From NCBI GenBank assembly GCA_051530055.1, contig CM121343.1, forward strand, positions 5,984,389 to 6,048,388: a stretch of DNA of 64,000 nt, written 5' to 3'. The notes under the pieces are model-generated. The model saw nothing but the letters and a program-made list of their open reading frames with translations. It made no database searches and was not told where the DNA came from. Position numbers and translations under genes: made by a program. The stretch comes from Neoechinorhynchus agilis. Lineage: Eukaryota; Animalia; Acanthocephala. The stretch's first letter is position 1, and each line of letters starts with the position of its first letter. Of this stretch, positions 24,965 to 63,142 are shown piece by piece.

Positions 24965-25925
24965 TTGTATTTTTCCCAAAGTTTTAAATGTGTGAGTTGG
25001 TGTCTTTGCGAATTCTGTCCCCGGTGTTGTCGATACTCATTTATTTGAGAAATATTTCACAAGGTTTTCCTTACCTCTTCAGTCTCTATTGTTTGTAAGT
25101 TTTAAATGTGTGAGTTGGTGTCATGGCGAATTCTGTCCTCGGGGTTTCGATACTCATTTATTTGAGAAATATTTCACAAGGTTTTCCTTAACTCTTCAGT
25201 CGCTATTGTTTGTAAGTTTTAAATGTGTGAGTTGGTGTCTTGGCGAATTGCCGGCGAATCTGTCCCCGGTGTTGTCGATACTCATTTATTTGAGAAATAT
25301 TTCACAAGGTTTTCCTTAACTCTTCAGTCTCTATTGTTTGTAAGTTTTAAATGTGTGAGTTGGTGTTATGGCGAATTCGGTTCCCAGTGTTGTCGATACT
25401 CATTTATTTGAGAAATATTTCACAAGGTTTTCCTTAACTCTTCAGTCGCTATTGTTTGTAAGTTTTAAATGTGTGAGTTGGTGTCTTGGCGAATTCTGTC
25501 CTCGGGGTTATCGATACTCATTTATTTGAGAAATATTTCACAAGGTTTTCCTTAACTCTTCAGTCGCTATTGTTTGTAAGTTTTAAATGTGTGAGTTGGT
25601 GTCTTTGCGAATTCTGTCCCCAGTGTTGTCGATACTCATTTATTTGAGAAATATTTCACAAGGTTTTCCTTACCTCTTCAGTCGCTATTGCTTTTAAGTT
25701 TTAAATGTGTGAGTTGGTGTCTTGGCGAATCCTGTCCTCGGGGTTATCGATAATCATTTATTTGAGAAATATTTCACAAGGTTTTCCTTAACTCTTCAGT
25801 CGCTATTGTTTGTAAGTTTTAAATGTGTGAGTTGGTGTCATGGCGAATTCGGTCCCCAGTGTTGTCGATACTCATTTATTTGAGAAATATTTTGCAAGGT
25901 TTTAGTTGCTTCTTCAGTCTCTATT
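24965..25925 (-). repeat. Tandem satellite 5, 118-bp unit, 8 copies, each carrying a minimal type-I hammerhead ribozyme
   Basis: Minus strand per unit: GAGA/GCGA-CTGAAGA-G-(G/T)TAAGG-AAAA-CCTTGT-GAAA-TAT-T-TCTC. This gives the core CUGANGA, helix II, GAAA, palindromic ATAT helix III and GAGA/TCTC helix I. Confidence 0.85.
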
Positions 25926-28667
25926 GTTTCGCAGAGTGGGAAACTAGAGCGGAGTTCGTGTCCTGCTTCTTCAGTGAATAGCGTTGTTCCTTCATCCTCC
26001 TCTAAAAGTTAATTATCTGGCCAATATAGCAGCGATCACAATTCGAGAAAGGTATTCTATATACCGCCCAATACTGGTGCTTCCGATTATTAACTAAAGA
26101 GCCTTTCGCTTTCCATTGAACAGCCATCAACATCTATCTTATGCGAAATTAAAATATAGTCAAATGCAGTGGCAAATTATTTTTTAAATTTGATCATCAT
26201 TATACAATAATCATGGTATTCTTCATTGTTTTTACTACTGGGAACGGATCTTTATTTTCATTATCAAAGGGGAATCAACAGATCACTCGTCAAAATAGGA
26301 AGATAGTTTTATCGATTTATGCTCAAAGATTAACAAAACTATTTGAAAATTCAAATCGGCGAGTTCGAATGAGTCATAAAACAATGAATAGCAACTTGAT
26401 TATAACTCACAAATTCTTATCAATAATTTTGTTCCATGATTAAGCCTTGTGCTCCAGTTAAGTATTAAACCATTACTCGCCGTTTAAATCGACAGTAAAA
26501 TCTTTATTTGCAAATGATTACTATTGGTAACTTTCGATATTGTCAATAACGCGTTTAACCTTCGACAAATCCTGCTCGTTTTATATGTTACAGTTCAAGT
26601 TAAGGCTAAAAATACCTACTGTCTTGATGTTCGTATTCAGAGCGTTAAAATAAAAATAATCAAGGGCTAAAAGCTGAAAACTTCCGTCAGTATTACGGCA
26701 TGAACCGCAAGCCATAAGAGTCAAATGTCTAAAACCACAAATTTGCTCATAAGATTATCCAGCGCAAAAGCCACAGTACACCACATCCCCGATTGGGCAG
26801 TGATTTATTCGAAACCTTTGGATCGGAGAAAGAAGATGAATCGTTCAATATCTCTGTCTCCCAATCGATGTAACACCTCCATCATTTCGCACAAAACGTA
26901 CTTTCCCAATTTCATAATTGTTTTTGCGTTTTTCGTATATTCAAAATCTATTCCATCTTCTAAGTTTGATTTTTTATAAGTGAAAGTTTCGTCCGGTGTG
27001 ACTTGTGCCTATAAACTGTGTCACGGAACAATTTTATAGTGCATTTATGTGTGTTTTTTAAAGAAAAGAGGTTCAGCCAAAACTCTGGCGATCTACATCT
27101 TCTAAGCTACAAATCCCATTGCCCAAATTTAAGCCGAACTGCCACAAAAAAATGAAACTTCCAGTCGTGCCAAATGAAGCCCATTTGCCACCGTCGCATC
27201 CGCTTAATTTTGAATTAACTTCAATTCAATTCGACTTTAGAGGATTTTCCAGCACGAAAACCGATATACGACAATGAATTGGCAAAAGATGGAACACAAA
27301 CACTAGGCGATTCGAAGTTGCCGGAAACCCACCTTTGCCGAATATGTTTGTGCCATGGGAAGAAACAATAACGTCAGTCAACAAACAAAGTGAACCAGAG
27401 AATCAGGCAAATACTCTTTCAGGTTCTCGAAATTTGCTTGAGTCGTGCTTATGGCAGCAAAGGGAGGATATAGAAACGGGAAATTGGACGATATCGAGTG
27501 TGCTATCAGGACAAAACGTAGCTCTAAATTCTCAAGACATAAATTTGAAATAAACAAATACAACGTCTCGAATAGAACCAGAAGTCGATCGAGAGCAATC
27601 ACCAAAGATTGTGTTGTCTTTGCCTGCAAAGGACCATCAATTTTGCCCAAACTCTCTGCATTTTTAAAGCCAGATCTTCTGAGATTAGAAAAGATCTTAT
27701 ATAATTTTTAACAATCTTATGAACCCTCAAAATGATTCACGTTTTTCCAATTTCAATACCCCACTCAAAATTCGAATTTTAGGAAACGCCCTGACCGTTA
27801 TTCTATGCCATAAAACAGACAGGGGAAATGAAAAACTTCTTAAATTAGGTAATAAAAAGGCCAAAAGAGCTCTAAAGCTTGGTTTAAATTATCATCAAGC
27901 ACAAGTTTTTGGAAAAACTGGAGCATCCCTGGCTTGGTTTTCTTTTCAAGAGGTCGTCCACCCTTACAAAAGGTTTTTTTCATTAATGCCTCCATAAAAC
28001 ACCTCGATTCCTTCCGTTTCAAGAGTTTCTGCCCATCACGGTTGCAGCACTAGACTTCATAAATTTCGATCGGAAATTGCTTGCCTTGTGCATTTCTATG
28101 TATGAATGATAAATAAAATCGGTTGTTGATGAAAACAGGAGGCGATTCGAAGAAATATTTAAGAATGTAAAGATGGTTGAAGCACGTCGATCAAAAAACC
28201 TCAGAGTACTTGATTAAATGAACATTATTAATGCCTGGTGATAGTTTTTATACAGATATTGATCGAGAATATCAATAAGCCGCTGTCTCCTACTACGAGT
28301 TCATATATTGCGTTTGAATTAATGGCATCAAATTTACAAAGATCGACATGTCCATTTATGTTCTCGTGAAGGCATTCAATACTGAAGGTCGCATCTTCGA
28401 ATTTAGAAAAATAACATTTACTTTTTTAACGAACAGTCGTTTCTAAGTCATAAAATCATTTTTATATCATCAACGAAGAATATTCAAAATCAAATTGAAA
28501 CATGAGAACATACTTAATATTGATTTTATTGACATCATACCTTAAATTTTTCAAATCAAAATTACTCCTTATAGAAAACGATCCGTTTTTGGATCAGAAA
28601 AAGAGAATTTGGAATTGAGCGAGTATTTAACTTACTGAATAGCGGATGGATTTTGACACGATAAATA

Positions 28668-31464: not shown

Positions 31465-32851
31465 ATGGAGACGATTATCGACGGTCAAAATCAAGTGCGT
31501 GATGTTCGTTTTAACCAAGACTGCAATTGCATTTTGGTTGCATACGATTCTAAGCTTCAAATCGTGAGTATAAGCGAAATGCTGGACGCGCCCGATAGAA
31601 TTATCCATGAAGCTGAAATAGCAAACGTTTACGTGATGGAACGACTTTTTTCAAGCAGTTTAATCGCGATTGTTACAAGTGATGATAAACTTCTTCTCCG
31701 TATGTACCAAGTAGACGATTGGAATGAGGTATGCAGGACTCGGCTCCCAGAAGCGATTTTGACGGTCAAACTGAACCGAGTACGGGTTGTAGTTGGTACA
31801 TTTTCAACGATCAATATATATTCGATAAATAATATGCAAGTTCTCCACACCATAACAAACCTTCAAAACCATAATGCAAGTTTAATTGCATTGTCTATAA
31901 GTTCCGTTGATTGTAATTTGGCATACCAATCACCCGCTGATCCCGGTAGTTTGCAATTATTTGATTCACTCATACAGAAGTCCAAAGGGTTAATAAAAGC
32001 GCACAATAGTTCTCTTGTCCATATCGCATTCGACCATTCTGGATTGCTTGTGGCAACAGCTTCTCATAAAGGTACTCTCATTCGGGTGTTCAACGTGCCG
32101 AATTGTACGCAATTATGTGAACTAAGACGTGGCCTTCGACGAGTTGCTAATATTAATTCAATGGCTTTTGATAAAAATGGTGAGTATTTGGCTGTTTGCA
32201 GCGATCTACGAACCGTACACGTTTTTAAACTGCCTCAATCGAACCCACCGACTACTACTACTGCTCCACATGTGGATCTAAGGGCATACAATAACTAAAT
32301 TGACACAGATCCACATACAAACACATGAGATTGCAACTTCTATTGGGAATAATGAAGATATTTCCAACAGCGCGACTAATACATGGACATCAACGGTTGT
32401 AGGTCTTGCAAGCTCCGTGGCTAATTCAATGATGTCAAAAGCAAGATCAACTTTAGTACGATCTCATGGACATTCAACGTCCGAAAAAAATCCAACCATC
32501 GTATTTGAACGGTCGTTCATATCCTTTAAACTACCAACTGCTGGATCGAAACCGGTCTGTGCATTAACTAGACTGAGGAACGACTTAAGGATCTTTATAG
32601 CCACAAAGTCTGGAATTATATATACCTATGGAGTTCATGAATATAAGCGAAACAAGTCAAACGACAACGAAGTCAGTGTGTATCTTGTATCAACATTCCC
32701 CCTTTACGATCTCGATTCGGGCTTTATGCAAACCACGAAGTATTCAACTGTTATTTTGTCCTCTCCTGCACGTAAGTCAAATGAAGGGACCGAAAAGTCC
32801 AATTCTAACGATATAAATGCCAATCTTAATCTGGATTCAGATATTGATTGA
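31465..32851 (+). CDS. WIPI: WIPI/ATG18 PROPPIN WD40 protein; 37-nt intron at 32272-32308 joins the two ORFs
   Basis: MERLFSSSLIAIV, IKAHNSSLVHIAFDHSGLLVATASHKGTLIRVF, ELRRG, VCSDLRTVHVFKL; the GT..AG intron restores the frame (TAPH|IHIQ). Confidence 0.93.
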
Positions 32852-39864: not shown

Positions 39865-41303
39865 TCACCGTACAAATCTGACTTTTGAACGTGGTATTGA
39901 ATGGTATTTATAAAGAGAGAAAGTGCAACCGGCGGTGAGTGCATTGAATAGTACGAAAGCCCAGCCAGTAAGGGCGCAGTTCATGAGTGGAAAGACGATT
40001 GCGACGAGGACATTGATTTCAGAACTGAGCAGAACTCCAAAGGATAGTGCCGTGTGTTTTTGTTCAGCGGAAAAAGCTTCGATTGCGAAGATTAAGGGCA
40101 TAGTGCCAAGTCCAAAAGAGTAACAAAAAATTAAGACTGAAATCAATACAACGGAGGTGTATGCGAGAAACAACCCTCCAGTGACAATTTGTGTGATGGT
40201 AATTTTCGTCGGAAAACGAAATGAGACGAAAAGTACGATCGTAAGGCAATAATGAACGGGAGAAATACCAGCACAATATTGATCGATAAGCATGAAGATA
40301 TGACCAGAGATCGTCGACCCCATGCATTCAATATTACAAACGACATCATAGCTCCTGTGAAATTCGCGATTCCGATGGTTAAGAGACAATAAGGTAAAAG
40401 TTGTTTTGATATTTTCATTTGTGAAAATATATCTGAACCGTAATAGAACACAGCCGTCGATCCACATAAAGGTTGAGCGGCAAAAAGACTTGATAGTACT
40501 AACCATTTTTGATTTTGTGACTGATGATTAGAGCAGTTATTGGCATCTATTTGTGTTGTATCGAAAAGTCGTGAATAATGGCTAGAGTCTTGATGAACGG
40601 GTGATACAAGTGGATTCAGTTGCACATACACATTATGATCACATTGAACATTTGATAATCCATCGGGAAAGTATTTAAGGAGTAAATAGCAAAATAGATT
40701 GCCGATACTCCATAATGATAATCCATACGGCCATGCTCTTGCATGAGTAAGGTAACATGGCAGGAGCATGAGATGTGCCATCAATAATCCAGTTGACATT
40801 AGTAAATGATGAAGACACATTGCATACGCTTTAAACTTTTCCGGGACAATTTTACTTAAGTATAACGGAATAAAGATGGAACATGTTCCACCGTACATTC
40901 CATTCAAGATTATGGATAATAGATAGATATTGTAGGATGATGTGAAATAAGCCGACAGTGCCAATAATGCACTGATCGGTTGAAATGGAATTATGATATA
41001 TAAAACAATTCTACAATTCTTAGAAAACAACTTAAAACGTCGACAAAACACTGCAATGATCATACCGAAATTCGCAGAAATCGTAAATACAATCACCGGT
41101 GTGGACTTCTTCATCTGCACAATCATTGAATCCGACGAAACGTTTAAGGCACTTAGACGATCGAGTACCACATTTGGAGACTGCCCAATTACACCAGTTG
41201 TAAATCCAAACGGAAACGACGTCGTCCAAGTTATGGTTAAACAAACAAATGCCAACCATGCGTTTGAACTAAGGTTTAATCTTCGGTGAAATTCAGGCAG
41301 CAT
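39865..41303 (-). CDS. SLC2A: SLC2A/GLUT-type MFS sugar transporter, one apparent frameshift near 40200-40250
   Basis: SFPFGFTTGVI, YLSKIVPEKFKA..LHHL, QPLCGSTAVFYYGSDIF, WGRRSL, then in another frame YSFGLGTMPLIFAIEAFS. Confidence 0.85.
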
Positions 41304-41825
41304 CTTTATAAATTCAAAAATGCAATATATTTGAATTACAGTTTCAGTTAATAGTTCGTTTTTTCGCATAGCTGTACGTGAAATGTGGCTTGCATGCATC
41401 AAAATTATTATAACTTTGAAACGGTCACAGTGCAGCTCAGCCGAAATAGTGTATTTTACGAATTTAATCACATATCATCACAGCTATCAGACATTTAAAA
41501 GCTTCATTCGCAACAAATAGGACACATCAACTCTTGACTTTAATTAACCCAAATATTTCTTTTCATTTAATAATCCCTGATTATATAGAAAATTACATCT
41601 TTTGCCGAGGAGCACAATTTTTAATGTCATATATCTTTGTCCTCGGGGTGAATTTGATTGTGCGTTGGCGAATCCTGTCCCCGGTGTTGTCGATACTCAT
41701 TTATTTGAGAAATATTTCACAAGGTTTTCCTTGCCTCTTCAGTCCATTGTTATAGTAGTAACAAATAATAAAGTTATGTTCCAGATTTATTATCGAGCGG
41801 AAAATGGGTGTTTTATTTATTTCTT

Positions 41826-42870: not shown

Positions 42871-45800
42871 TTATACTTGCCCGCAGTCCGGAAATTCTTT
42901 TATGAGTAGTTGCTTATTGATTTCCTGTCCATCGGTTAATAAATGTCCAAATCTGTGATTGAGATACTCGATCGGTGCAAAATCGACAACTATCGGATGT
43001 TCATCTATCTTTGTCGTCTTTAATCTAGCAATACATTGAGACGCTTCGTCGAAATCTGTAAGGAAAATCAATGCCGTTCGTGTTGTATTATCCAAGAAAA
43101 CATTGTCAACCCGAGTGGCAGCCAAGTTCGCAATTTTTTCGTCAGTTACTGTCCTTGGTATCGATCCAAGCCAAAGTACTTTTGAAGGATAACTACGACC
43201 GTGACCGTATTTAACCATTCGCAGTTGATCATTCCCGACAATAGAGGCAATAGTAACAGAATCAAGTTGAAGAATACGTGCTACACTTCGAGCCTCCGAA
43301 AAATATACAAATGCATATTTTTGCGGATATTAGCATTTGAGATGTCTACAAACCACTCTCAATTATATCTATCGAAAAACTAAGGTTTCGTGTTATACTT
43401 TACTTAAAGTGATAACAAAATAAGTAAAAAAATTGCGCGTTGAGTATTTATATTCTCTTCGCAGATTAAGGACAGCTAATCTTTCAAGCATTTTGGAAGT
43501 CACTTTATTATCCGTACCGACATTAATAAGGGCTAATGCACAACCTCAAAAATCAAAAACATTCCAATCTTATCAACCTACTGCCTAAGCGCAAAAGGTT
43601 GTACATACACCAGAAAACCTTTTTTGCTTGATTTAGTTAAAAAACGTTTCCATTTAAACACGTATTTATGTGGATAAATGATAAAACCCATCTTGAGGAA
43701 ATGTGCAACTACAATTAGAATTCTAAGAAATTACGCACCAAATCCATTTCCATTTATTAATTATGCAGTATAAAGTATAAATTAAGCACATTGAAAGTCA
43801 ATATCAAATAAATCATTGAATATTGAATGGTTACAGTGAACATAATCTCCCGGTTAAAGATTCATTTATTATTATGAAATCGTTCGAAAGAGGAAACTTC
43901 ATCTCATTATTGTTTGCAAGTGTTTACGACTTTAAGATCGTGTTTTCCTCTCTCAAAATACTTCAAAAATAATAAAGGAATCTTTAATGAGGATTATGTT
44001 CACCACCATTTAATATTTACCATCCTGAAGGATATTCTTGATATGATTAAATAATAGAATGCGTGACATTCGATTCCTTTGTTATTATGAAATCTTTCGA
44101 AAGCGGAAACTGCATCTCATTATTGTTTGCAAGTGTTTACGACTTTAAGATCGTGTTTTCCTCTCTCAAAATACTTCAAAAATAATAAAGGAATCTTTAA
44201 TGGGGATTATGTTCACCACCATTTAATATTTACCATCCTGAAGGATCTTCTTGATATGATTAAATAATAGAATGTGTGACATTCGATTCCTTTAGTATTA
44301 TGAAATCTTTCGAAAGAGGAAACTTCATCTCATTATTGTTTGCAAGTGTTTACGACTTTAAGATCGTGTTTTCCTCTCTCAAAATACTTCAAAAATAATA
44401 AAGGAATCTATAATGAGGATTATGTTCACCACCATTTAATATTTACCATCCTGAAGGATCTTCTTGATATGATTAAATAATAGAATGTGTGACATTCGAT
44501 TCCTTTAGTATTATGAAATCTTTCGAAAGAGGAAACTTCATCTCATTATTGTTTGCAAGTGTTTACGACTTTAAGATCGTGTTTTCCTCTCTCAAAATAC
44601 TTCAAAAATAATAAAGGAATCTTAATGAGGATTATGTTCACCACCATTTAATATTTACCATCCTGAAGGATCTTCTTGATATGATTAAATAATAGAATGT
44701 GTGACATTCGATTCCTTTAGTATTATGAAATCTTTCGAAAGAGGAAACTTCATCTCATTATTGTTTGCAAGTGTTTACGACTTTAAGATCGTGTTTTCCT
44801 CTTTCAAAATACTTCAAAAATAATAAAGGAATCTATAATGAGGATTATGTTCACCACCATTTAATATTTACCATCCTGAAGGATCTTCTTGATATGATTA
44901 AATAATAGAATGTGTGACATTCGATTCCTTTAGTATTATGAAATCTTTCGAAAGAGGAAACTTCATCTCATTATTGTTTGCAAGTGTTTACGACTTTAAG
45001 ATCGTGTTTTCCTCTCTCAAAATACTTCAAAAATAATAAAGGAATCTTTAATGGGGATTATGTTCACCACCATTTAATATTTACCATCCTGAAGGATCTT
45101 CTTGATATGATTAAATAATAGAATGTGTGACATTCGATTCCTTTAGTATTATGAAATCTTTCGAAAGAGGAAACTTCATCTCATTATTGTTTGCAAGTGT
45201 TTACGACTTTAAGATCGTGTTTTCCTCTTTCAAAATACTTCAAAAATAATAAAGGAATTTATAATGAGGATTATGTTCACTGCCACCATTCAATATTTAC
45301 CATCCTGAAGGATCTTCTTGATATGATTAAATAATAGAATGTGTGACATTCGAAATAAGGAATTGCCATGAAATCTTAAATTTTCCAAAACCCGCAAAAT
45401 ATAATCTAGAAATCATGGTTATGCTTTTTGGAAAAGTTTCATGGAGTTTTTCTCGGAGAATTCAATTGAAGGAAACGTGGGTATTAAAATATTAAAAGTT
45501 AAGTTCCTTTAGATCACACTAATAACCGCTCCTTAAGATACAGCTAACCCTGTCTGCGCCTTTGCATCCACAAGCCAGATATCGCCAAATGCCAAATATG
45601 CCTTCCGAATATCATCCTGGGTTAAAGCTGCAGGTATATTTCCAACAAACAAGGTTCTTGTAGCCTTTTCTGCATAAAGTGAAGGTGGATCAAAGAATTC
45701 CAAATTGTTCATGTCTTTCACTATATTAAATTCAGATTATTTTAAAACATGAATTTTATACTTACACACAGGTAAAGTTTTGTCCACTCTTTTCCGTAAA

Positions 45801-52052: not shown

Positions 52053-52435
52053 TCAATCGTACTTCACCGTCCCCAAGACGCTCGCTGCGTTTCCTCGCTG
52101 GATAGCCAAGGATATTTTCTGCACTAGGAACGAACGAGCCCTCCTGTCATTGGTCGAGTTGATCAGTCGATGCCCCAGTTCGAAAACAAAACTCCTCGCC
52201 GCGCGTCCGAAAGCTCCTAAGGTTTCCACTGCGAAGGGGACAAAATGATGAGAATTCCTAAAATCAGCGTATTTTGCAACCTTACGAAGCTCAGCTGCTG
52301 ATGCGGCTCCCCCAGCCCCGGAGGATGCATATCGCAGATTGCTGGCTGCAAGGGAGTCGACGCATGTTGCGTCCCATAGGAGACATCTCCCCCTGCTCCA
52401 AGGAAAAACGGTAACTCCATCCGGCCTACGGGCCC
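52053..52435 (-). mobile_element. CRE-clade restriction-like endonuclease domain, 5-prime truncated
   Basis: RRPDGVTVFPWSRGRCLLWDATCVDSLA..AELRKVAKY..FVPFAVETLG..QKISLAIQRGNAASVLGT. Confidence 0.9.
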
Positions 52436-52743
52436 ATTTTATGTTCTGGTGACAGCTATTCAATTCTTTTTCGAGCTGTTCGGAAGCTGATCTGATTTCT
52501 GGCTTCTTGTCCATTACTGCAAGTTGAAAATCTTCGGGATACTCCTAGTGTTATGGAAGCGCTCGCGGTATTTTTCGACGAAACTAATGATGATATTGTA
52601 AAATTATTGCTCTTTACCTTGGGAAAATCTGTTTTATATATTGCCGACATCTATCAGAAGCAAAATTTTGTTACTTTAAAAATGTAATTGCACACTTGTC
52701 AGGATTTCGCAAAAAATCTTACAGTTAAAAATCAGTTTTTTTA

Positions 52744-55104
52744 TTAGCAGCGGTATGAGTCCTTTACGATCTTGGGTAAATAATAACTGCACAAAGATTT
52801 AAAATTAGTATGATAAAAATAAGAATGTATCCCGAGCGGGTTGTATTCCTCTCTCCTTAGTGCTGTCATTATTTCTCCTCTTTCTCTGGGTGGGAGTTGA
52901 CCCAAGTTGTCTGCAGAAACTAAACGCCGGACTAGTTCAATTGGCACTCCATATTTGGCGCAAACCACTTCCAAAGTGCGGTCTCTACTTCTCGCGAATG
53001 CCCTTTGCGAATGCTGCTTGATGAATGCTGCTGCCTTGTTCTTGTCCCGCTCAACTTGCTCCAAGTCCACTTGGGTGAAAACTAACTGTCTAACTAATCG
53101 CGGTATTCCTGCCTGATCGAATTGTTTCTGAACCTCATTGCAGTAATCCTTGTCAAGATCGTGGCGTATCAGCGCCGCATAGGCTCTTGCCTTCCTGTCT
53201 CTCTTCGTTGCCTTTTGTCCTACTCTGTCGGCCATTTCCCAGTAAGGATTCTCTATTCTCATCAGGTCATCTTGAGCCAGTTCGGGGGCTGCTTCTAATC
53301 TCAGTGCGAGTTGGCCACTTGGCTTCAATTTCGGTTCCTTCAGTGCAAGTCTTCCTCTCAACCCTAGCCATCCCAACAATGGCAGGTTGCTGTCATATTT
53401 AAGCTCCTGCCAGGGCAGCTTTCGCATTGATTCATTCTCTGGCATTTGCATGAACCAATTTATTGTTTCCACTGCTATCTGCCTTCCGAATTCTCCATCC
53501 ATGCCTTCTCTTACCATGTTCATGACTTGTGCTCCCACTGATGGAATCAATCCCACCAGATCTCTCACTGCATTCTTGTACCAATTGCCTGAGCTGTAAG
53601 TAGCCAATACAGGAGCGAGAGGGTAAGAAGGGATAGGCTCATTCTTGTCGCACATCAATTGCAGAAACTCCGCTCCACCCTCTGATATCAACAGTTTCTG
53701 TTTCTTGCCTTCGTATCCGGATAATTCCACCATTCTCACGTAAGCCAATGCGCTCAGCCAATCTCCTGTGAACACGACTTCATCATCTCCTGATTTGATT
53801 GTGTCCTCAAAACTGATGTCTATTCCAGTTGTATTCTTGAGATTTTCCAATAGGGCGAATGTGGCAGGGGAGCCGTCTCGATAATGATCGAGAGCTGTGG
53901 AACCGCAAAGTGTCAAGTAAGCCATCTTTTCGTTCCGACGACGGAGTAGGGGGGCAACTTGATTGACGGTGTGCAGAAGGCGGGTGAAATCCATCCGTGC
54001 GGATGTGTCCAAATCATCTGAAAGAATTAAACTAAACACTCTATCGAGACAAGGACCGCTCGAGATAGTGGTCGGAGGATCGATCGGATCGGGTGAGAGA
54101 GCGTGGAACATATTAGGATCAAGGTCCGTGCCGGGCTTCAACAGAACCTCTTCTTCACGCCACAGCTCGTTATATTCAGCACCAATGGGACCAGATGTGG
54201 CATAAGACAAACCCAAGGAGATACATACCGGTCCATGAGTTTCGGCCAAATGGGGCATGTCGCAAAGATAGTAATGTAGAGCTTTCTTTTCCTCGACGCT
54301 CTTCCCCTTGTAAAAGGGTACACTAACTTCTGCGACTCCTCTAGCCTTTTCACCGAGGAAGATATCATCTTGCTCAATAGTCAGACCTACGTCATGTAGG
54401 AATTCGGGTTCTTTCGCTGCAATGATGCCAAAAACTGTAGTTGGAATAGTCCGAAATAGAGAATAATTACCAGCCAAATCGGTAACTACTTTTGAAACGT
54501 GATCTGCCGACTGAACGGTCTCAACCGTCATCTGATACCCTACCGGCACATAGGGTCGCAAGATCGAATTGCCGTTGATAGAGTGCATAAGGCGGTTCCA
54601 TTCCTCGGAGAGCCTCTCAGCATAGCCGTCGCCACCAGCCAGGATGGAGGAGATATAGGAGCTAGTAAAACTGCTCACTCCATTTCCAGCTAAGGTGGAG
54701 ATAGCATCCGGTGAGAGCCATCCCGAAGAGTTAAACTGCCTGAAGTGCCTATTTTTTAGCGAGGCAAGCAAAGCTGTGCGCCTAGTGGCGCGCCATTCTA
54801 GATTTTCTGCTAATTCGCCTTGTCCGTTTAGAACATCCAACTCCTTACAGAAGGCGGCACATAAGCGCTGGTTACGGGAGTTGAGCCCATGTGCCAAGGC
54901 ATGCAACATGGGCTGATTGTTCCTGTGAGCGAAGCAGAGACCCATAAGTCTCTTCTTCGAAGTTCCGATCTTGTTAAGAAGGTAATGAGCACGAACCCGT
55001 ACATCATTACGAAGTTTGTGATCGACATTGTCTGATTTTTCCGCGATGGTCGTAGCCCCAACGAACGCAGCTTCATATTTGAAGTTTCGTATAGCGGCCT
55101 CCAT
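52744..55104 (-). CDS. RNA-dependent RNA polymerase of an endogenised dsRNA virus (toti/giardia-like, Ghabrivirales-like)
   Basis: 786-aa intronless ORF with ordered motifs: KEPE..EKARGV (F), LDPNMFH (A candidate), DGSPATFALLENLKN (B), KSGDDEVVF (C), GYEGKKQK (D), AEFLQ (E) and PLAPVLATYSSGNWY (toti-like motif 8). Confidence 0.8.
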   Translation of the reverse strand: MEAAIRNFKYEAAFVGATTIAEKSDNVDHKLRNDVRVRAHYLLNKIGTSKKRLMGLCFAHRNNQPMLHALAHGLNSRNQRLCAAFCKELDVLNGQGELAENLEWRATRRTALLASLKNRHFRQFNSSGWLSPDAISTLAGNGVSSFTSSYISSILAGGDGYAERLSEEWNRLMHSINGNSILRPYVPVGYQMTVETVQSADHVSKVVTDLAGNYSLFRTIPTTVFGIIAAKEPEFLHDVGLTIEQDDIFLGEKARGVAEVSVPFYKGKSVEEKKALHYYLCDMPHLAETHGPVCISLGLSYATSGPIGAEYNELWREEEVLLKPGTDLDPNMFHALSPDPIDPPTTISSGPCLDRVFSLILSDDLDTSARMDFTRLLHTVNQVAPLLRRRNEKMAYLTLCGSTALDHYRDGSPATFALLENLKNTTGIDISFEDTIKSGDDEVVFTGDWLSALAYVRMVELSGYEGKKQKLLISEGGAEFLQLMCDKNEPIPSYPLAPVLATYSSGNWYKNAVRDLVGLIPSVGAQVMNMVREGMDGEFGRQIAVETINWFMQMPENESMRKLPWQELKYDSNLPLLGWLGLRGRLALKEPKLKPSGQLALRLEAAPELAQDDLMRIENPYWEMADRVGQKATKRDRKARAYAALIRHDLDKDYCNEVQKQFDQAGIPRLVRQLVFTQVDLEQVERDKNKAAAFIKQHSQRAFARSRDRTLEVVCAKYGVPIELVRRLVSADNLGQLPPRERGEIMTALRREEYNPLGIHSYFYHTNFKSLCSYYLPKIVKDSYRC

Positions 55105-55165
55105 ATCACGGGTGAAAGAACCGTTCTTGTCAGTGGGAACAAAAGAATTATAATTGCGATGTCTG

Positions 55166-56662
55166 TCATATCTCTCGCTTCTCTACCCGAACGTGTTCGG
55201 CCTCACCAAGAGTGGCCTTCGCTCTACTCATGTAGGCCAAAAACGCGGTACCGAGATCGACCGGGCTATTCGGCAAAGACTCCAGATCTAAATCGTTGTT
55301 ATAAGCTGTCATGATCGGAAGATCGTCAAGATGAGACAAAGCTTGAATTTCTTCTCCGGTCCTCTCTATCAAAGCCAAACTAGAATCAATCTTAAGCTGT
55401 GCCCCTCTCAATTCTTCCAGAATCTTGAGAAGCACAGAATCGCGAGGGCGCTTAGCCAAAGATTCTCGAGTTGACTCAACTTGTTTTTGGTTTTGGGAGA
55501 GGAGCTCTCTAAATTCGATTCTCTTCTGAGCCAAGACTTTCTCGACTGCAACGCGGAATTTGGCTCGGATCCGCGTTGGGTTAGTGCTACGTAGAAGATC
55601 GGCCGGGGAGGCCCCAAAGACACGGGTAATAGCGGAGAGCTGATCCTGCGACGTTAAAGTCTCTTCGGGCAAAACCGAACGACTAAAGCTTACGCTCTCT
55701 GAAGGTTGGACTGTGACCACATCACCCCCAGTCTTCCTTTCAGTCAAAGGGGATGGAAGTGGCGGGCCAATTACTGACTCGACAAAATCAGGAAAGATAG
55801 TGGCTAAAGCTGCTCTAGCCCTGGTAAGAAGTGCCCTTGTAATCATCGAAATGCGAGCTTGACGGGTGGTAAGTGCCTCGAATGTAGGATTAAAAATGCC
55901 CAATTCTGTAACAAGCGCACCCCCAATCAATTCGCAATCTGGAACGAGTTTAAGCTTAAACAATTGTATAGCAACGAGAGCACGGATAAGGAGGAGAATC
56001 GACGTGTCACGTTTCAGTCTAACGGTATGATCGGATTTGGTTGTGTCGAAGATTTCCCGAACTGAGAGTTCGTCGTTCATGTCAAAATTGAGAAAGGTTT
56101 GATTAAACAAATAATGGGCCCAAGCGTGGATGTTTCTAGGCGAAGAAGAAGACTGCCCAATTTTCTTTTCGCAGTCGAGACACGACTTCCGGAGACGAAC
56201 ATACTGAGCGTAATAATCTTGAGCGCTGAGAACAGACTCAGAATTGACAGCTCTTTCATATTTGCTTACATCACCTGACTTCAGAACACAGGGGCGAGCA
56301 ATGTCCTTATAAAAGGCCAGAAATGCGTCCAAAAAGACCTTCTGCTCGTCGTAGGGCGTGTCTAAAGGCACGGCCGCTAACTCGAAACCCCCTTGTCTGA
56401 AAGCAGGACCCCGGAGGGAAGAATCGGCCTGGTAGAGATCGTCCGGACGGCGGGAGAATACGGCGAGAGCAAACTCAACCATACACTTCTGAGAGCCAGT
56501 AACTAGACGATAAATACTCAAGTTTTTCCAATCAAATGAATCGCCGGTAGATGGTGGCACGACGGCCTCAGACGAAGAAGACCCGGCAACGGAGGTCCGC
56601 GACAATGGAACAGTTGCCTCATCGTAGAGATCGGAGAAGGCGCGACAGGAAGTATTTGGCAA
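55166..56662 (-). CDS. Viral ORF upstream of RdRp, 498 codons, helical with C-terminal coiled coil; no early ATG
   Basis: Uninterrupted frame with the same GC-richer composition as the RdRp; heptad-like C-terminus (VEKVLAQKRIEFRELLSQNQKQVESTRESLAK). Function unknown. Confidence 0.7.
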   Translation of the reverse strand: MPNTSCRAFSDLYDEATVPLSRTSVAGSSSSEAVVPPSTGDSFDWKNLSIYRLVTGSQKCMVEFALAVFSRRPDDLYQADSSLRGPAFRQGGFELAAVPLDTPYDEQKVFLDAFLAFYKDIARPCVLKSGDVSKYERAVNSESVLSAQDYYAQYVRLRKSCLDCEKKIGQSSSSPRNIHAWAHYLFNQTFLNFDMNDELSVREIFDTTKSDHTVRLKRDTSILLLIRALVAIQLFKLKLVPDCELIGGALVTELGIFNPTFEALTTRQARISMITRALLTRARAALATIFPDFVESVIGPPLPSPLTERKTGGDVVTVQPSESVSFSRSVLPEETLTSQDQLSAITRVFGASPADLLRSTNPTRIRAKFRVAVEKVLAQKRIEFRELLSQNQKQVESTRESLAKRPRDSVLLKILEELRGAQLKIDSSLALIERTGEEIQALSHLDDLPIMTAYNNDLDLESLPNSPVDLGTAFLAYMSRAKATLGEAEHVRVEKREI

Positions 56663-56666
56663 GGTC

Positions 56667-56891
56667 CTACGCTTTCACACGAAGTCCGAACGGGAATGGA
56701 AAATTGCGGCTCACGCACGATGGTGGTCTCCATCGTATACGTCGCCTCCGTTCTATTTGTGAAATGCTTGCCCTCAAGCGACTCCCTGCCCAGTTAGGGT
56801 GCCCTCTTGCGCGCTCATCCCCAAAAAAGAACAAATCTGGCGAGAGCACTTTCTTTATTGCTCTTGCGCAGTACGCTGACCTCATCTCCAT
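56667..56891 (-). CDS. Short basic viral ORF starting at the TGATG overlap; possibly the true N-terminus of the 498-aa ORF
   Basis: ATG at 56889-56891 overlaps the upstream TGA; its stop lies 4 nt before the 498-codon frame. Confidence 0.45.
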   Translation of the reverse strand: MEMRSAYCARAIKKVLSPDLFFFGDERARGHPNWAGSRLRASISQIERRRRIRWRPPSCVSRNFPFPFGLRVKA

Positions 56892-57420
56892 CAACCTGCG
56901 CGTTTCTTCGAAAGCTTCTTTGAGGGTGCGATGTGGAGTGTAGATACATCCAATGCCGCATCCGCACTCGGGGCACCTTCCTCGCTCTTTCCTCTCTGGG
57001 GGCTTCTCCTGCTCGGGGATCTCGCAACCGATGCTTGAGCCCTCGATTCCCTTGATCGCTCTCTCGTCATCGGCGGTGAGGGCTGGGCAGCCGAAGAAAC
57101 CCCAGACTGAAAACCCTGGGGCTGGCCCTCTTTGGTGAGAAATCCTGCCTCTTCAAGCGAGTTGCGCTCTGACGCCGTCAAACTTTTTATAGCTTGTCTC
57201 TTTACTGATTGGTCCATGCCCTCAAATTCTTGTGACATCTTTCTCAGCGCTGTGAGTGGCATCTCTTTTATACGTTCCTCCATTTTCTTCGCTTCTTCTG
57301 CACTCTCCTGTGATGCAATCATGATCTTTTTAATTAGCCCTGCCTCCATTTTGTCAACCAATTCTCTTTGCTTTGCGGTTATCCTGGCTGATGATGCGTC
57401 TACTCGCTCCCTGACAGATA
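56891..57420 (-). CDS. Viral ORF1 C-terminal part: coiled coil plus Arg/Ser-rich disordered tail
   Basis: Frame open from LSVRERVDASSARITAKQRELVDKMEAG.. to SPSRRSPQRGK..KKLSKKRAG*. Confidence 0.55.
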
Positions 57421-57672
57421 GTTAAGTATTGCATGGGACGAACCATGTCGTTCAATGACCGTTAACTCCTGTGATGTCGTTTCTAACTTGGAGCTGATAC
57501 TTTCGGTATTGACCTTGGAAATCTCTGCCGCTTTGATGTTTTGAGCTGTTCGTGTTAATACTCTACGTCGGAAGGAACTTCTGGCTCTACCTCGCGATGG
57601 CCCTGTATATTCAGGCGGTCCAAAGGAATTTTGGTAGTCAGAACTGTTCAATTCGGCACCCTTTGATATCAT
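57400..57672 (-). CDS. Viral ORF1 N-terminal part (Arg-rich), probably frameshifted into the 56891 frame
   Basis: MISKGAELNSSDYQNSFGPPEYTGPSRGRARSSFRRRVLTR..; overlaps the open next frame by ~20 nt. Confidence 0.5.
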   Translation of the reverse strand: MISKGAELNSSDYQNSFGPPEYTGPSRGRARSSFRRRVLTRTAQNIKAAEISKVNTESISSKLETTSQELTVIERHGSSHAILNYLSGSE

Positions 57673-57775
57673 CAACTTTTACATCGTTCAATCACGTTGG
57701 TATGTTCATTTCTTTTGTCTCCTTCGAAGATAGGCGTCTTTAAATCCTGTTTTTTTGGTTATATCTTTAGCGTCA

Positions 57776-58284
57776 TTATTTAGTTTTTTGTGACTGCAAC
57801 GAATCAATGACCAAAGCTTGTTCTAATTTTCCACTAAATGTGAAAAGGGGCAATCAATTCTCGACGTAACCCCCAACCTGAATTCGCTCTATGTCTACGT
57901 ATCCTTGAGCGATGAAGGTGTTGGTAACTGAATTCACAAAGTAGATTTAAAGCTTTGTAGTTAAACTCATTGAATTTTTTGCGGAGCTCAACGCTCGTCT
58001 ACACGCTTTAAGTTTATATACGATAAACCCCAGTAATCTTCGAGCTTCGTCGCCAAGGTTTGCACGTCCTAATCGCGGCAACACTTCATCCAGGGTGGTT
58101 TTTTCCACTGAGTGCCATCTTGTTATCTGGTGACGTTTAATACAACATCGTCAAATTCTTTAACCGACTCTCAATCACTGTTCTGCACTCAAAAGTAGTT
58201 TCTTTTATTTCAGTTTTGCTGCAAAGAGTCAATCATGATCTTAGAGTTTTGCAAAATTTCTACTCCCTTGTCGATCTGTTTCAT
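57776..58284 (-). pseudogene. Degraded ORF of unknown origin directly upstream of the viral cassette
   Basis: ..TTLDEVLPRLGRANLGDEARRLLGFIVYKLKACRRALSSAKNSMSLTTKL*IYFVNSVTNTFIAQGYVDIERIQVGGYVEN*LPLFTFSGKLEQALVIDSLQSQKTK*: only 2 internal stops in ~110 codons. Confidence 0.35.
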
Positions 58285-59550
58285 TTATTTTGCCATGGTG
58301 GTATTTTATCCCTATGATATCTACTGTTATGGCTGTTGTCTTTTACACCAGTCTTTCCGAAAAAGCATGGAAGACCAATAAGGATTGCTCAGAAGCACTT
58401 GTTAATTGCCGTCTTTACTTTTATATAGAGCTTTAATTGTCGACGTTTTAGGGATTTTGTAAATGTTCCTTTCGATCTTTTTGAGAGTCCCAATGTGTTG
58501 ACCTTGAATTTGTCGAGTTGTATTCATCGGCTAACACTGGAATGAGTGCTGTGTACTTCTTTTCATTACTTTCTGTTGGTATCCTCAAAATGATTAAGCC
58601 GAGTTTGAGCAGGTTATTTGTTTTTAATATCATGGTATCGACCATTCAAATGAATTAGTTTGTTTCCTCAGCACCCTAGGAAGATCGCTATAAAACGAAT
58701 ATATTTCGACTGATTGAATCAGAGTCCGTTTATCAATTCAATCTAAAAACAATTGCAGTGAAATTTGTCACAAACACATACCAAATGATTGTTTTCGTTT
58801 TGACTCGCGTTAACCCGGGATTGTCAACCCCGTAGGCTGCCTCCCTGGATGCATTCAAACCAACTAAAGGTATTCGGAGGGAAACTTTTCCTTTGCTCCC
58901 TGTTCCATCATGTTAGCCATTTCAGTATGCATATCGACTCTTTTATCAGTCGATTGAATTTTCTATTTTCGGTACAGAGGACGAAAAAGAAGATTTATTC
59001 AGACAAAGGGGACACGGTGGATTAGGGAAGAGCAGGTTCGTGCACTTAACAGTGTTAAGAGCTTATATGTTCAGCTATTTTTTCATCTTGATAGCGGCCT
59101 GTAGAGGATCACGATCCAGCATCAAGGGTAGCTTTTGTTGAGCTTTTAGAAATACCTCGCGGAAATTCAGACGTTGATTAAAATATGAGGCCGGAAATAG
59201 CCCAGGAATTCTAGACGCTCTTGACTAGTTTGGCATCTAAGCGGAGCTTTAGAGCACATTGAGCGTGCACTTTGGCGACTTTCAACAATTTTTCATTTTG
59301 TTTAGGCCATCCTTGATTGCAAGGTTCGCCGTAAAGGTGTAATCCAAAAGATTCAACTTTTTGTGAACTAGTGGATCAGGAAGTGCCAGGATCTGGGCAA
59401 AAAACTGACGGATCCTGCGCTTGTCCACCGCGGACTTCAATTTAAAAATGAATTTCGTTTTTTGTTGATTTAGTGCCGGCCCCATTTGTGAAAGTATTCA
59501 CTGTAGATAGATTTTCCCAAAACGTTTCCGAGTACGATGTTTTTAATTTT

Positions 59551-59587: not shown

Positions 59588-59916
59588 TCCCTCATTCTGA
59601 AAAGGTCAGAAAAGAGATAAACTGTCGGACAATTCATCCTTCCGATTGAGTAACCCATCCGTAGGTGCAACCGACCCTGCTACTCCTCCACGACTAATAC
59701 GCAGAGCCTCGGCAATGGAAAGGTCTACAGGATCAGGTGCCCTGTAGAGAACCCCCACCCCCAAGGCTGGGCTAACATTATTGTGGTGGCTAGCAAAATG
59801 GGTGGCCAACGGTGCTGACGCGTACGACGGTGCGTGCGGGTTACATGCATTACGGAAATGTTCAGTTACCCGCTGGTGTAGCCTCCGCTCCGTCTTTCCA
59901 ATGTAGCAGCAGGATT

Positions 59917-60606
59917 TCCCCTGGTCCTTGCAATTACCGCATGTGATCCAATATACCACGTTGTTCATCATAAAGGCTGCCTTCGGTCTTCGTCTTCCAT
60001 CTTCGTTGTCCAATAGACATTGAATGCACATTCCCCTGGTCCTTGCAATTACCGCATGTGATCCAATATACCACGTTGTTCATCATAAAGGCTGCCTTCG
60101 GTCTTCGTCTTCCATCTTCGTTGTCCAATAGACATTGAATGCACATTCCCCTGGTCCTTGCAATTACCGCATGTGATCCAATATACCACGTTGTTCATCA
60201 TAAAGGCTGCCTTCGGTCTTCGTCTTCCATCTTCGTTGTCCAATAGACATTGAATGCACATTCCCCTGGTCCTTGCAATTACCGCATGTGATCCAATATA
60301 CCACGTTGTTCATCATAAAGGCTGCCTTCGGTCTTCGTCTTCCATCTTCGTTGTCCAATAGACATTGAATGCACATTCCCCTGGTCCTTGCAATTACCGC
60401 ATGTGATCCAATATACCACGTTGTTCATCATAAAGGCTGCCTTCGGTCTTCGTCTTCCATCTTCGTTGTCCAATAGACATTGAATGCACATTCCCCTGGT
60501 CCTTGCAATTACCGCATGTGATCCAATATACCACGTTGTTCATCATAAAGGCTGCCTTCGGTCTTCGTCTTCCATCTTCGTTGTCCAATAGACATTGAAT
60601 GCACAT
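59917..60606. repeat. Six identical 115-bp tandem copies inside the Penelope ORF
   Basis: ATG of MCIQCLL recurs at 60031, 60146, 60261, 60376, 60491, 60606. Confidence 0.97.
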
Positions 60607-61259
60607 AATGATCCTCGTGGTGATTAATCCTCATTAGCAGTTTTCCTAAGGAAGGACCGGTCATATGCACAACCCGTGCTCTGACGTGGCATTCCCGAAG
60701 TATTCGCTTCACGTTCCATGTGAAATCTTCGGATATATACGGGATTCTCAACGGTGGTAAATCGATAAAACGATTGTTCCGATTTCGTCGGTTGTTTGCC
60801 CTGTCAATCATCCGGTCTACTTCTTGTGTAGAATATCCGTTGCTTGCGAAAATACCTCGGATTCGTTCCTCTGCATCTAATCTGCTCTGTCTAGTTGTCG
60901 AGCATAATCTAGCATTTCTCAACATGCCTCCTAGAATCGCCTGCTTAATCGCCCATGGGTGATGTGAGACCCGATGTAGGAGAATGTCCTTTTTACATAA
61001 CTTCCTATACCAAGCTCTTTGAGTTGGTTCGTCTACTCTGAAGATCATGTTGAGGAACGGTAGGTAGTCACGTGGTTGTTCTCTAGTAACCTCAATGTTT
61101 CCCTTAGGATCCATTCAGTTGAGATTCCGGTTAACCTCACTATCCTTCCGGTAAGAAAACAACACATCATCCACGTATCGGAGGTAAATTTGACTCGACG
61201 ATAACTGTGGAAAGATGCGCTGCCGTTCCAGACCATTCAGATATAAACAGCTTTAATGG

Positions 61260-63010
61260 TTAAAAAACCAAGAGAGTATTGGCTTTGATATTGATGGTTT
61301 GCTATGTCGCTTCCCCTGGCTGCTGCATTGGCCGTGTAGATTGCTGTTTGCCGGTTTAGGCTAAATTTTGCTAAGCGGTTGAGAAGGGTTGTCGAGAAAG
61401 ATCCTCGTGATCCGATAGGAATTCCAACTGTAGACACGTTATTAATATTTGTTTTGTAGAGTTGTGCCACAATTGGTCGTAGGACATCGTATTTGCTTTC
61501 TTTGGCTTTTGCCATATCGGCTGCTATATCGTTGACTTCGTAGTAAACGGCGATATCCACGATGTAAACTCTATCGGACTTCGTTTCGCTTATTATGAGA
61601 TCGGGTTTTAAGAGGTTACCGTTTGGGTCATGAAGTCTGGCGCTTTCTTCGATAATGTAGTTATTAACGCCTACTGAGTTTGTGTTGCGGCTGAGTGCTT
61701 TTACAAAGCTTTTTTGAACTTCATCATCGAGCCAGTCGAATAAGGGCACTTGTTTAAGACATGCAGGTACGTCTCGGCTATATGATTGCAATGCCGGCAG
61801 TTCTTTGTCCGCTGCTTATCCATCCTCGATAATACTGATCCGACTTCAAGGAGCTCACTCCTGAGCTTTATGAGTTCAAGGTAATTTTTATGGGTAGTTT
61901 GACGATAGCGATACAAAATCAGTTTCTGGTCCATGAACCCATTCACGAAGGATTGGTAGCCGCTGGATTGTGTAGGAGTTGAGTCCCAAGACTTGATTAG
62001 GAATTGAGTTTTTTAAGGCATCAACGGTCATTTGATTTATAACAACTTCCTTCATGACTGCAGTGATTAATTTGCTATCATTTGCCGCGAATATTGGTTC
62101 GTCCGGGAACGTTATTTCGAGGCTTAGGTAGGCTGCAATTCGTTGCTGAGACAGACTTCGTATTTCATGGACCTAAAGCCCAAGGCGCCCATTCTCAGGG
62201 GCAAGTAGAATAAACCTGTGCTAATATAAGGAGGGAAATATAATATTTTTTTGGCTTTTTCCGCCAGTATTCACCTATTTCGGTTAGAAATGTATGGCAT
62301 GTAGTTAGTGATGATGCTAACTCCGGTAAAAAAGAGGGTAATCAATAGCCATTCAATAAATGCGCTGCCTGGGTGGGTGATAATCCTGCACTTTTTGGTT
62401 GATAGGAATGCATCATCTATTTTGTTCAAGAATTCGATGTTTCGGCGGCCTACAAATGGGTTTCCTCCTATGTAATTGGGTCGCCATCTAATATTGGACT
62501 TAATGGACAGCCGGAAATGTTGGCAATCGGCTTTGTATCGACTATCATTCTTCCTTGCTTAAACCGAATCGAGTATGTGGAACATTTCAGTGGGTTAAAA
62601 AGGATAGACCTAATTCGGCTATTGAAGCCTGTGCAATGTCCAGCTTTGACTGTACGCCTTCGGTTGAACCACTAACCGAAAGGGTGTCGTCCGCGTAGAC
62701 CAAGTGTCCTATCGAGGTTTCGCTTAATTTTAGGTCACTATTGAGCAGACGTAATTTACGGAGCGAGCGACAATGTCGTATGATTTCGTTTAGGACTATA
62801 TTATTCGCGAGGCAAGCTGATCCATTAGGCAACGTCTGCCCACCGTCCAAATCGTAGCATTGACGGATTCGACCTAAAAGTACCCGATGAAATAAACGCA
62901 TTAAGAAAGACGGGATCGTTATTGGGGGCCAGCATGATATGTTGCGCAATTCTTCGTTTGAGTTAGCAGCTTTAGGTATTAGAATTGTTTTGTCTTCTTT
63001 CCATTGACTT
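61260..63010 (-). mobile_element. RLE-type (NeSL/R2/Utopia-like) non-LTR retrotransposon fragment: internally deleted RT, CCHC knuckle, PD-D endonuclease
   Basis: PSQWKEDKTILIPK..PITIPSFLMRLFHRVL..HLVYADDT; CRHCNHIAETYLHVLNKC; KPDLII..VYIVDIAVYYE..KESKY..GIPIGSRG. Confidence 0.88.
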
Positions 63011-63142
63011 GGGGACGCTCACTCTGAAAAGGTCAGAAAAGGGATAAACTGTCGGACAAAGAAACCGTGAAGCGGCGAAAATTCGGACAAAATTAAAAAA
63101 TAAAAACATCATACTCGGGAACGTTTTGGGAAAATCTATCTA
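63011..63142. repeat. Second copy of the Penelope 3-prime end: 48 bp direct plus ~84 bp inverted
   Basis: 63011-63058 matches 59582-59632 (direct); 63059-63142 is the reverse complement of ~59504-59578. Confidence 0.88.

Follow-up and report, generated by a model that had tools for sequence, protein, structure and literature searches.

Gene content of the locus

The window analysed here is a stretch of 64,000 nucleotides (nt) from the acanthocephalan Neoechinorhynchus agilis (GenBank assembly GCA_051530055.1, contig CM121343.1, positions 5,984,389 to 6,048,388), and this report concerns a cassette of viral-type sequence within it. Five minus-strand open reading frames (ORFs) of 90, 152, 74, 438 and 786 amino acids (aa) lie within 57672-52744. 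The GC content is 0.484 over 52744-57672 compared to 0.361 over window bases 1-50000, and the viral-type pieces are similar to one another in this respect (0.47-0.52). An earlier note, made from the letters alone, had described these closely packed, GC-richer ORFs correctly and had taken them for an almost whole integrated virus with an intact RNA-dependent RNA polymerase (RdRp). Our comparisons point to pieces of what are likely two toti-like viruses, called A and B below, arranged as follows.

57400..57672, minus strand: 90-aa ORF, matched only at aa 55-88 (65% to a segment of the mosaic gene model P0017)
56891..57424, minus strand: likely C-terminal tail of the virus B capsid ORF; 176 open codons, 152 from the ATG at 57349; the stop overlaps the next ATG (TGATG)
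57110..57116, minus strand: slippery heptamer G GGU UUU, in phase, the predicted -1 frameshift site of virus B, with a counterpart in 9 of 9 relatives
56749..57152, minus strand: start of the virus B polymerase frame (74-aa ORF), truncated at about 56749
53855..56748, minus strand: internal piece of the virus A ORF1 polyprotein (ORF1-A), 2,894 nt, which takes in the 438-aa ORF together with the first 417 aa of the 786-aa ORF
52744..55104, minus strand: chimeric 786-aa ORF, in which the virus A ORF1 piece (aa 1-417) is joined in frame to the C-terminal half of the virus B polymerase
52825..53854, minus strand: C-terminal half of the virus B polymerase (motif C, D region, motif E, thumb), 96% identical to aa 513-855 of the paralog P0004

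The 786-aa ORF

All seven hits of the first homologue search were N. agilis gene models, and one of them, P0001, is the window ORF except for nine residues. The paralogs P0002, P0003, P0005, P0006, P0007, P0014 and P0015 matched the ORF up to GSPATFA (aa 417) and then diverged (7 of 7); beyond this point, the complete paralogs carry about 550 further residues of a different protein. The remainder of the ORF, from aa 418 to about aa 760, was 96% identical to P0004 (328/342 residues), and the final ~27 codons extend into AT-rich host sequence. An unfiltered phmmer search against 1.84 billion proteins gave 109 hits, 9 of which matched only aa 1-425, while the best stretch of 99 began at aa 402 or beyond. 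Only the window's own protein covered both halves.

GDD at aa 439, EFLQ at aa 479 and SGNWY at aa 505 are present in the 786-aa ORF and invariant in our alignment A6. The motifs that should precede them were located in P0004, with motif G (PAGSS) at 296, motif A (DFSSYN) at 414, motif B (TGTRNTARDN) at 493 and a conserved F block at 345-361 in A6. None of the G, A and B patterns of P0004 was found in the 786-aa ORF. A regular expression for motif F gave a misplaced match in P0004 and none in the window, and the F block of A6 falls in the part that has no window counterpart. This part, aa 96-512 of P0004, amounts to 417 of its 866 residues and includes motifs G, F, A and B. The apparent motifs A and B of the window (DDLDTSARMDF and GSPATF) are shared, in identical or closely similar form, by all 9 of the 9 ORF1-type paralogs that were inspected, and in none of these does the polyprotein carry a GDD. 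Of the ordered F-A-B-C-D-E series that had been proposed, the GDD, EFLQ and SGNWY motifs stand, whereas F, A and B, together with G, are absent and the supposed A and B are capsid-type look-alikes. The Pfam RdRP_4 profile, suggested earlier as a check, did match the ORF, but only at aa 430-508 and below the cut-off (E 0.064). A PDB sequence search of the ORF returned 0 matches at E 10, and the profiles A3 and A1 gave only matches with E of 0.15 or more.

As judged from these alignments, the 786-aa ORF is not an intact RdRp but a chimera that joins, in one frame, a piece of a capsid-type polyprotein to the C-half of a polymerase. Lacking motifs G, F, A and B, it cannot be active as a polymerase. 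That the two parts share a frame is most simply put down to a one-in-three chance.

Virus B polymerase and its relatives

P0004 matched Pfam RdRP_4 above the cut-off (34.9 bits). Its predicted model had a pLDDT of 82.5 and a pTM of 0.84 (59 sequences), and the best fold matches of this model were toti-like RdRps in BFVD and rotavirus VP1 in the PDB. On this evidence, P0004 is a true polymerase. The Ghabrivirales (toti-like) origin proposed for this DNA is borne out. The homology stops at 52825, short of the C-terminus of the relatives' polymerases, and the GC content drops to 0.31 there.

In a quick tree, the virus B polymerase clade comprised P0008, L001, P0020, P0021 and P0028 (SH-aLRT 100). 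The tree had 90 rows, namely 89 of 121 candidates (32 were excluded by a motif/length filter) and the window piece, whose row covers 46% of the columns. The clade members are 29-47% identical, and the longer ones lie on 5.2-5.6-kb contigs. The nearest sequence relatives of virus B (P0008, P0020, P0021 and L001) are environmental contigs with 34-47% identity; the genomes of virus B relatives are 5.2-6.3 kb long and encode capsids of 889-1155 aa. Motif B of P0004 is not of the SGWKWTALLD type, which occurs in P0014, L033 and L035 on a separate branch of the tree and which we take to be tied to Giardiavirus/IMNV-related families. The polymerase half in the window is not of this type, which is found elsewhere in the genome, attached to ORF1-A (P0014).

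Virus B resembles unclassified Ghabrivirales with an SGxR[ND]TARDN motif B in polymerase fold and motifs, and in both the polymerase ORF comes after the capsid ORF and overlaps it in the -1 phase. The best named fold matches were Erysiphales associated totivirus 24, Ahus virus, Hubei toti-like virus 6, Persimmon latent virus and Spissistilus festinus virus 1. In contrast to these named viruses, the sequences closest to virus B form their own clade of environmental contigs. Hubei toti-like virus 6 has been assigned to the proposed 'Deltatotivirineae' (PMC13483474). By the 70% polymerase-identity species criterion quoted in the same source, virus B is, on its sequence, a new species.

Fragments upstream of the 786-aa ORF

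Positions 56897-56751 matched P0004 aa 47-95 at 84%, and the similarity of the window polymerase start to P0019 reaches upstream of the ATG. This polymerase frame shares 262 nt, in the -1 phase, with the 152-aa ORF. All 9 of the 9 related viral genomes with a capsid/polymerase overlap (160-274 nt) had one in-phase GGAUUUU there, and an AUGA stop/start overlap accompanied the -1 heptamer in 4 of the 7 relatives shown; the window combines TGATG with its heptamer. In L001, L003, L005 and L010, the in-phase GGAUUUU is found together with the AUGA overlap at the capsid-polymerase junction, and two expression routes, frameshifting and the stop/restart at AUGA known from victoriviruses, may coexist.

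This geometry and the heptamer suggest that the 152-aa ORF is likely the tail of the virus B capsid. Some observations weigh against this assignment. The similarity of the 152-aa ORF to the capsid tails of the relatives was not significant (68/1000 shuffles; hhalign prob 0.3), and the region 56894-57421 (minus strand) gave a Pfam match to Stk19 (E 1.7e-5), probably by chance, at 24.9 bits compared to a cut-off of 27 bits. The window heptamer alone is weak evidence, as in-phase heptamers occurred at 5 of 1,218 codons of two long window ORFs. A stimulatory fold after the heptamer was no better than in shuffled sequences (z +1.41; 191 of 200 shuffles fold as well) in a model that excludes pseudoknots. 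An origin of the 152-aa ORF from host STK19 was considered and rejected, since the match was below the cut-off, the GC content is virus-like and the ORF overlaps the polymerase frame.

The 90-aa ORF had no relative among the viral contigs, and the P0017 segment that it resembles had no match in the Atlas. It is probably a third captured fragment.

At 56748, the sequence passes to the N-half protein family (P0016 from aa 169) and continues through the 438-aa ORF into the 786-aa ORF. The corresponding region is one uninterrupted ORF in the paralogs P0003, P0005, P0006 and P0007, and the window frame is broken between 56653 and 56620 and again close to 55170. At the second break, a length variant segregates (6/12 reads in run X8, 8/9 in X6 and 7/10 in X7); the X1, X3 and X4 contigs have it and that of X2 does not. 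The upstream ORFs are fragments (a putative capsid tail, a polymerase start and polyprotein pieces) and not the novel, atypical gene set that had been proposed. The introns predicted in gene model P0011 were rejected, because contigs of X2 (56858-57231) and X3 (56835-57177) pass one of them unspliced.

Virus A ORF1 and the number of source viruses

The sole outside match found for ORF1-A was the 1624-aa ORF1 of Schistocephalus solidus toti-like virus 3 (SsTV3; 7,954-nt record), with E 1.9e-6. Profile alignment of the two with hhalign gave a probability of 96.7 and E 4.6e-10 over 573 columns with 27% identity, and the 438-aa part of the virus A piece had no significant alignment to SsTV3 ORF1. 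The full length of ORF1-A was estimated at ~1,680 aa by summing the paralogous pieces, compared to 1,624 aa for SsTV3 ORF1 (QJD26159.1; PMC7305300), and a CxxC-x-HA motif was seen by eye at a similar position in both. The host of SsTV3 is, like N. agilis, a fish-gut helminth; however, SsTV3 is an exogenous, vertically transmitted virus (PMC7305300), and its identity to ORF1-A is only 27%. No relatives of ORF1-A were found among the viral contigs or the metagenome contigs. Pfam, PDB and Atlas searches with ORF1-A gave no match, and the Atlas search for its paralog P0002 gave nothing usable (0.75). From its position, ORF1-A is likely a capsid-type protein.

In gene model P0014, the end of ORF1-A leads into a second polymerase type with SGWKWTALLD, which showed 23% identity to P0004 over 74 aa and lay on a separate branch of the quick tree. 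Relatives of the P0014 polymerase include 8.4-8.8-kb contigs, whose first ORFs had no similarity to ORF1-A. The long first ORFs of two SGWKWT-type viruses, L033:91-6237 and L035:143-5020, both contain Nudix-like stretches as seen by eye; that of L033 has NPGP (2A-like) motifs, whereas the ORF1-A paralogs lack NPGP. The SsTV3 polymerase is closest to Dumyat virus (PMC7305300), and one soldier-fly locus of endogenous viral elements (EVEs) matches Dumyat virus as well as LbTV, and the LbTV clade has been related to Giardiavirus (PMC9231314).

The capsids of the viral-contig relatives of virus B had no similarity to ORF1-A (hhalign prob 0.1). Because these capsids are unrelated to ORF1-A, and because P0014 joins ORF1-A to the other polymerase type, two toti-like viruses, A contributing an ORF1 polyprotein and B a polymerase, are the likely source of the cassette. 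By sequence, both lineages are previously undescribed. The new lineage that had been proposed is therefore supported in its novelty, with virus B falling below the 70% criterion and virus A ORF1 at 27% identity to its nearest match, and corrected in number, since two viruses and not one are indicated.

Several points tell against this reading. The SsTV3 polymerase was outside the comparison, the model of the ORF1-A paralog P0002 was poor (pLDDT 28.2 with a 4-sequence alignment), and the link in P0014 depends on a gene model that may join exons. In P0019, moreover, a diverged ORF1-A piece adjoins a diverged polymerase start of the virus B type, which a one-virus model fits as well. In such a model, ORF1-A, the 152-aa tail and the polymerase would all derive from a single toti-like virus of ~8 kb that was rearranged during or after integration. 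The shared GC content of the pieces agrees with it, as does the adjacency in P0019, although both P0019 pieces are strongly diverged from the window. However, the paralogous ORF1-A models finish in their own C-terminus and not in the 152-aa tail (no tblastn match), the ~900-1150-aa capsids of virus B relatives are unrelated, and P0014 ties ORF1-A to another polymerase type. We therefore consider a single scrambled virus unlikely, though it is the strongest of the alternatives to two viruses.

Integration, copies and variants

The raw DNA reads of runs X8 and X6, which carry one sample label in study P3, gave a summed depth of ~7-20 per bin over 52.9-58.5 kb at 90% likeness. Depth did not change abruptly at the upstream edge and read ends did not accumulate anywhere, and the flanking repeats reached several hundred. 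Both internal junctions and both edges of the cassette were crossed by contigs. Junction 53854 was spanned in X1 (52861-54556), X2 (52840-54211), X3 (52622-54568) and X4 (52822-54233), and junction 56748 in X1 (54769-56802), X2 (56613-56881) and X4 (56429-56821). The upstream edge was covered by contigs of X1 (57075-59208, which reaches a high-copy host repeat) and X4 (57590-58098), and the downstream edge by the same X3 contig (52622-54568). Paralogous reads and contigs cease to match at 53855 and 56748.

The viral DNA is integrated and is not contamination, as the earlier note had held. RNA-virus-derived sequence was found at host single-copy DNA depth, joined to host sequence and with diverged copies, the features by which an EVE is recognised. 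Against this, X1 may be the source of the window and hence not independent, and X2-X4 belong to one study (P2). The link of the cassette to unique host genes depends on the assembly. The X2-X4 contigs, from runs that like X5 are only guessed to be RNA, extend over the cassette and become sparse or disappear in the upstream flank.

Frame-breaking length variants were observed inside the 786-aa ORF in 6/12 X8 reads at 54039 and in 6/22 at 54751, and they speak against the fused ORF being under constraint. ORF1-A pieces were also present in 17 other gene models, with 40-88% identity where measured; these models lie on 9 contigs, of which three are 7.8-19.4 Mb long. One X3 contig and a few X7 and X8 reads represent another copy, which skips 1,579 nt of the ORF1-A region within 53971-55551 and is a separately deleted paralog. 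Among the mosaic gene models listed (P0014, P0017, P0019, P0012, P0117 and P0024), P0014 contains tandem ORF1-A pieces of different divergence together with its SGWKWT-type polymerase, P0017 combines ORF1-A with a zinc knuckle, and in P0012 an unassigned segment is joined to a host mRNA capping enzyme. These mosaics suggest many EVE clusters across the genome.

Flanking sequences and other features of the window

The cassette lies between the following features.

57700..58500, strand not assigned: single-copy AT-rich flank (GC 0.378) upstream, with the same DNA depth as the cassette and contigs bridging to it
59606..63018, minus strand: broken Penelope-like (GIY-YIG) and non-LTR reverse-transcriptase fragments, on the same strand as the viral pieces
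52053..52514, minus strand: 3' fragment, present in high copy number, of a presumed non-LTR retrotransposon with a restriction-like endonuclease; it lies downstream of the viral pieces

Retroelement fragments are thus present on both sides, in agreement with the flanking retroelements reported in the note. On the upstream side, Pfam matches were obtained to RVT_1 at 62590-63018 (E 9e-5), to zf-RVT at 61704-61934 (E 4e-4) and, weakly, to GIY-YIG at 59609-60031 (E 0.028); we presume the Penelope label for the GIY-YIG fragment. The downstream fragment had a depth of ~330-530 compared to 10-17 in the cassette (run X8). A Pfam search of it gave no match, and from its motifs we take it to be of the non-LTR type with a restriction-like endonuclease. 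The minus strand carries all five viral-type pieces as well as the retroelement ORFs that were recognised in 51.5-63 kb, although the sample is small. A direct virus-retrotransposon junction was not found, as ~310 nt of AT-rich sequence separate the cassette from the downstream retroelement, and this counts against a retroelement-driven origin of the patchwork.

The single-copy upstream flank contains a 67-codon open frame (57950-58150, minus strand) without a Pfam match, which might be an additional captured fragment. Six perfect tandem copies of 115 bp (100% identical) lie at 59916-60606 inside the Penelope-like GIY-YIG fragment and are either very recent or an assembly artefact. Elsewhere in the window, host genes were recognised for an SLC35F transporter (exon, 21223-21516), a PROPPIN (Atg18-like, 31465-32851), a sugar transporter (39865-41474) and an RRM protein (42871-43329). 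A GC-rich open frame of 563 codons (22870-24561, minus strand), with Gly/Ser ends and a Pro/Arg/Ile-rich repeat core, had no Pfam match and looks like a host structural protein. Six satellite arrays were found at 2115-4659, 7274-10538, 11800-13326, 18905-20038, 24979-25929 and 43859-45353, with units of 119, 183, 304, 142, 118 and 213 bp, respectively, and 91-98% matches. An Rfam search of the window gave 0 matches.

Origin of the cassette

Taken together, the data are best explained by an integrated, defective patchwork in which 2.9 kb of virus A sequence have taken the place of the catalytic middle of the virus B polymerase gene, a reading that we hold with good confidence. About 1.25 kb of the virus B polymerase gene would have been exchanged for the 2.9 kb of virus A. 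A host non-LTR or Penelope reverse transcriptase may have copied the RNAs of two toti-like viruses infecting the worm lineage, and the resulting complementary DNAs (cDNAs) would have been joined without long homology. Non-LTR reverse transcriptases jump between templates, and the joining may have occurred by template jumping in the order B-A-B during copying. The virus A cDNA may equally have been inserted later into an existing virus B copy with the loss of ~1.25 kb; the data do not separate the two routes.

A domesticated, perhaps antiviral, protein is a further possibility to which we assign a low probability. In that case the host would express and retain the fused ORF, whose product might, for instance, serve as a decoy and disturb the assembly of capsids or the packaging of polymerase. 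The frames are long, contigs of three runs guessed to be RNA span most of the cassette, and a toti-like EVE of planthoppers has been co-opted (PMC10636211). However, frame-breaking variants are common in the DNA reads, and the polymerase piece is young, as it has kept 96% identity to its paralog. The fusion junction is found in no other protein among the 109 hits, and the RNA nature of X2-X4 is a guess only. Less probable still is a defective interfering or recombinant RNA that formed between co-infecting viruses and was captured whole. The virus B pieces flanking the insert are indeed colinear and in the same sense, but the 5' part of virus B is absent, with the unrelated 90-aa segment in its place, and the homology ends at 52825, before the C-terminus of the relatives' polymerase, where the GC content is 0.31. 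The termini for replication are apparently missing. A near-complete virus, as first proposed from the closely packed GC-rich ORFs, or a mis-assembly or contaminant can practically be dismissed, because the window lacks motifs G, F, A and B, the capsid and polymerase ORFs are both partial and interleaved, and the junctions are crossed by contigs of two studies, with flat raw-read depth in a third.

On the patchwork reading, the locus can neither replicate nor encode an active polymerase, and it is likely inert or a source of PIWI-interacting RNAs (piRNAs), the latter role being putative.

Comparison with known endogenous viral elements

The kind of object, a fragmented endogenous RNA-virus mosaic, is already known; the two source viruses are new. 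The piRNA clusters of Aedes contain EVEs from more than one virus, interspersed with retroelement fragments on the same strand, and these EVEs originate through reverse transcription and non-homologous recombination (10.1101/127498, 10.1101/438911). The N. agilis locus resembles the piRNA-cluster EVEs of Aedes aegypti, whose joining is reported not to depend on homology, in its fragments of different viruses and of retroelements in a single orientation. It differs in its acanthocephalan host, in its non-LTR and Penelope-like neighbours as opposed to the LTR neighbours in the mosquito, and in the direct, in-frame fusion of two virus fragments.

Toti-like EVEs have been described in Trichinella (PMC13483474), black soldier fly (PMC9231314), planthoppers (PMC10636211), sea lice (PMC10287012) and bumblebees (PMC12922265). 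Those of Trichinella, black soldier fly and planthoppers are likewise partial capsid or polymerase fragments in invertebrates, often young and polymorphic. However, in the excerpts of these papers they are single-virus fragments, and an in-frame fusion of two viruses is not mentioned there. The acanthocephalan Pomphorhynchus laevis has multiple fragmented RNA-virus copies in its assembly, which are rhabdovirus-like RdRps of negative-strand viruses on unplaced contigs (PMC12548735). In N. agilis, by contrast, the source viruses are double-stranded RNA (dsRNA) viruses, the copies lie on multi-megabase scaffolds and reads support the integration. In the main text of open-access papers, we found no report of toti-like EVEs in acanthocephalans, none of a 'chimeric/composite/mosaic EVE' in the two-virus sense, and no description of virus-derived piRNA memory in acanthocephalans. 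The excerpts of the N. agilis genome and transcriptome paper show 'virus/viral' in the reference list only (PMC12690905).

N. agilis keeps PIWI and piRNAs (PMC12256650). More speculatively, acanthocephalans may build strand-uniform archives of several viruses through non-LTR or Penelope reverse transcriptases, which would switch from the RNA of one co-infecting dsRNA virus to that of another, even across suborders, and these archives may feed a mosquito-like piRNA antiviral memory. We put this forward tentatively and think it rather doubtful at present.

The locus is also a warning case, as a chance in-frame fusion combined with look-alike motifs can pass for a 'divergent polymerase', and virus-mining pipelines are misled by the automated gene models made for loci of this kind (P0001, P0011, P0014, P0017 and P0019). 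For the biology of thorny-headed worms, a host group whose viruses are almost unknown, the cassette records what are likely two dsRNA virus lineages that infected them, one of which is related to a tapeworm virus. It also provides a defined, young and polymorphic locus at which to ask whether virus-derived piRNA memory exists outside arthropods.

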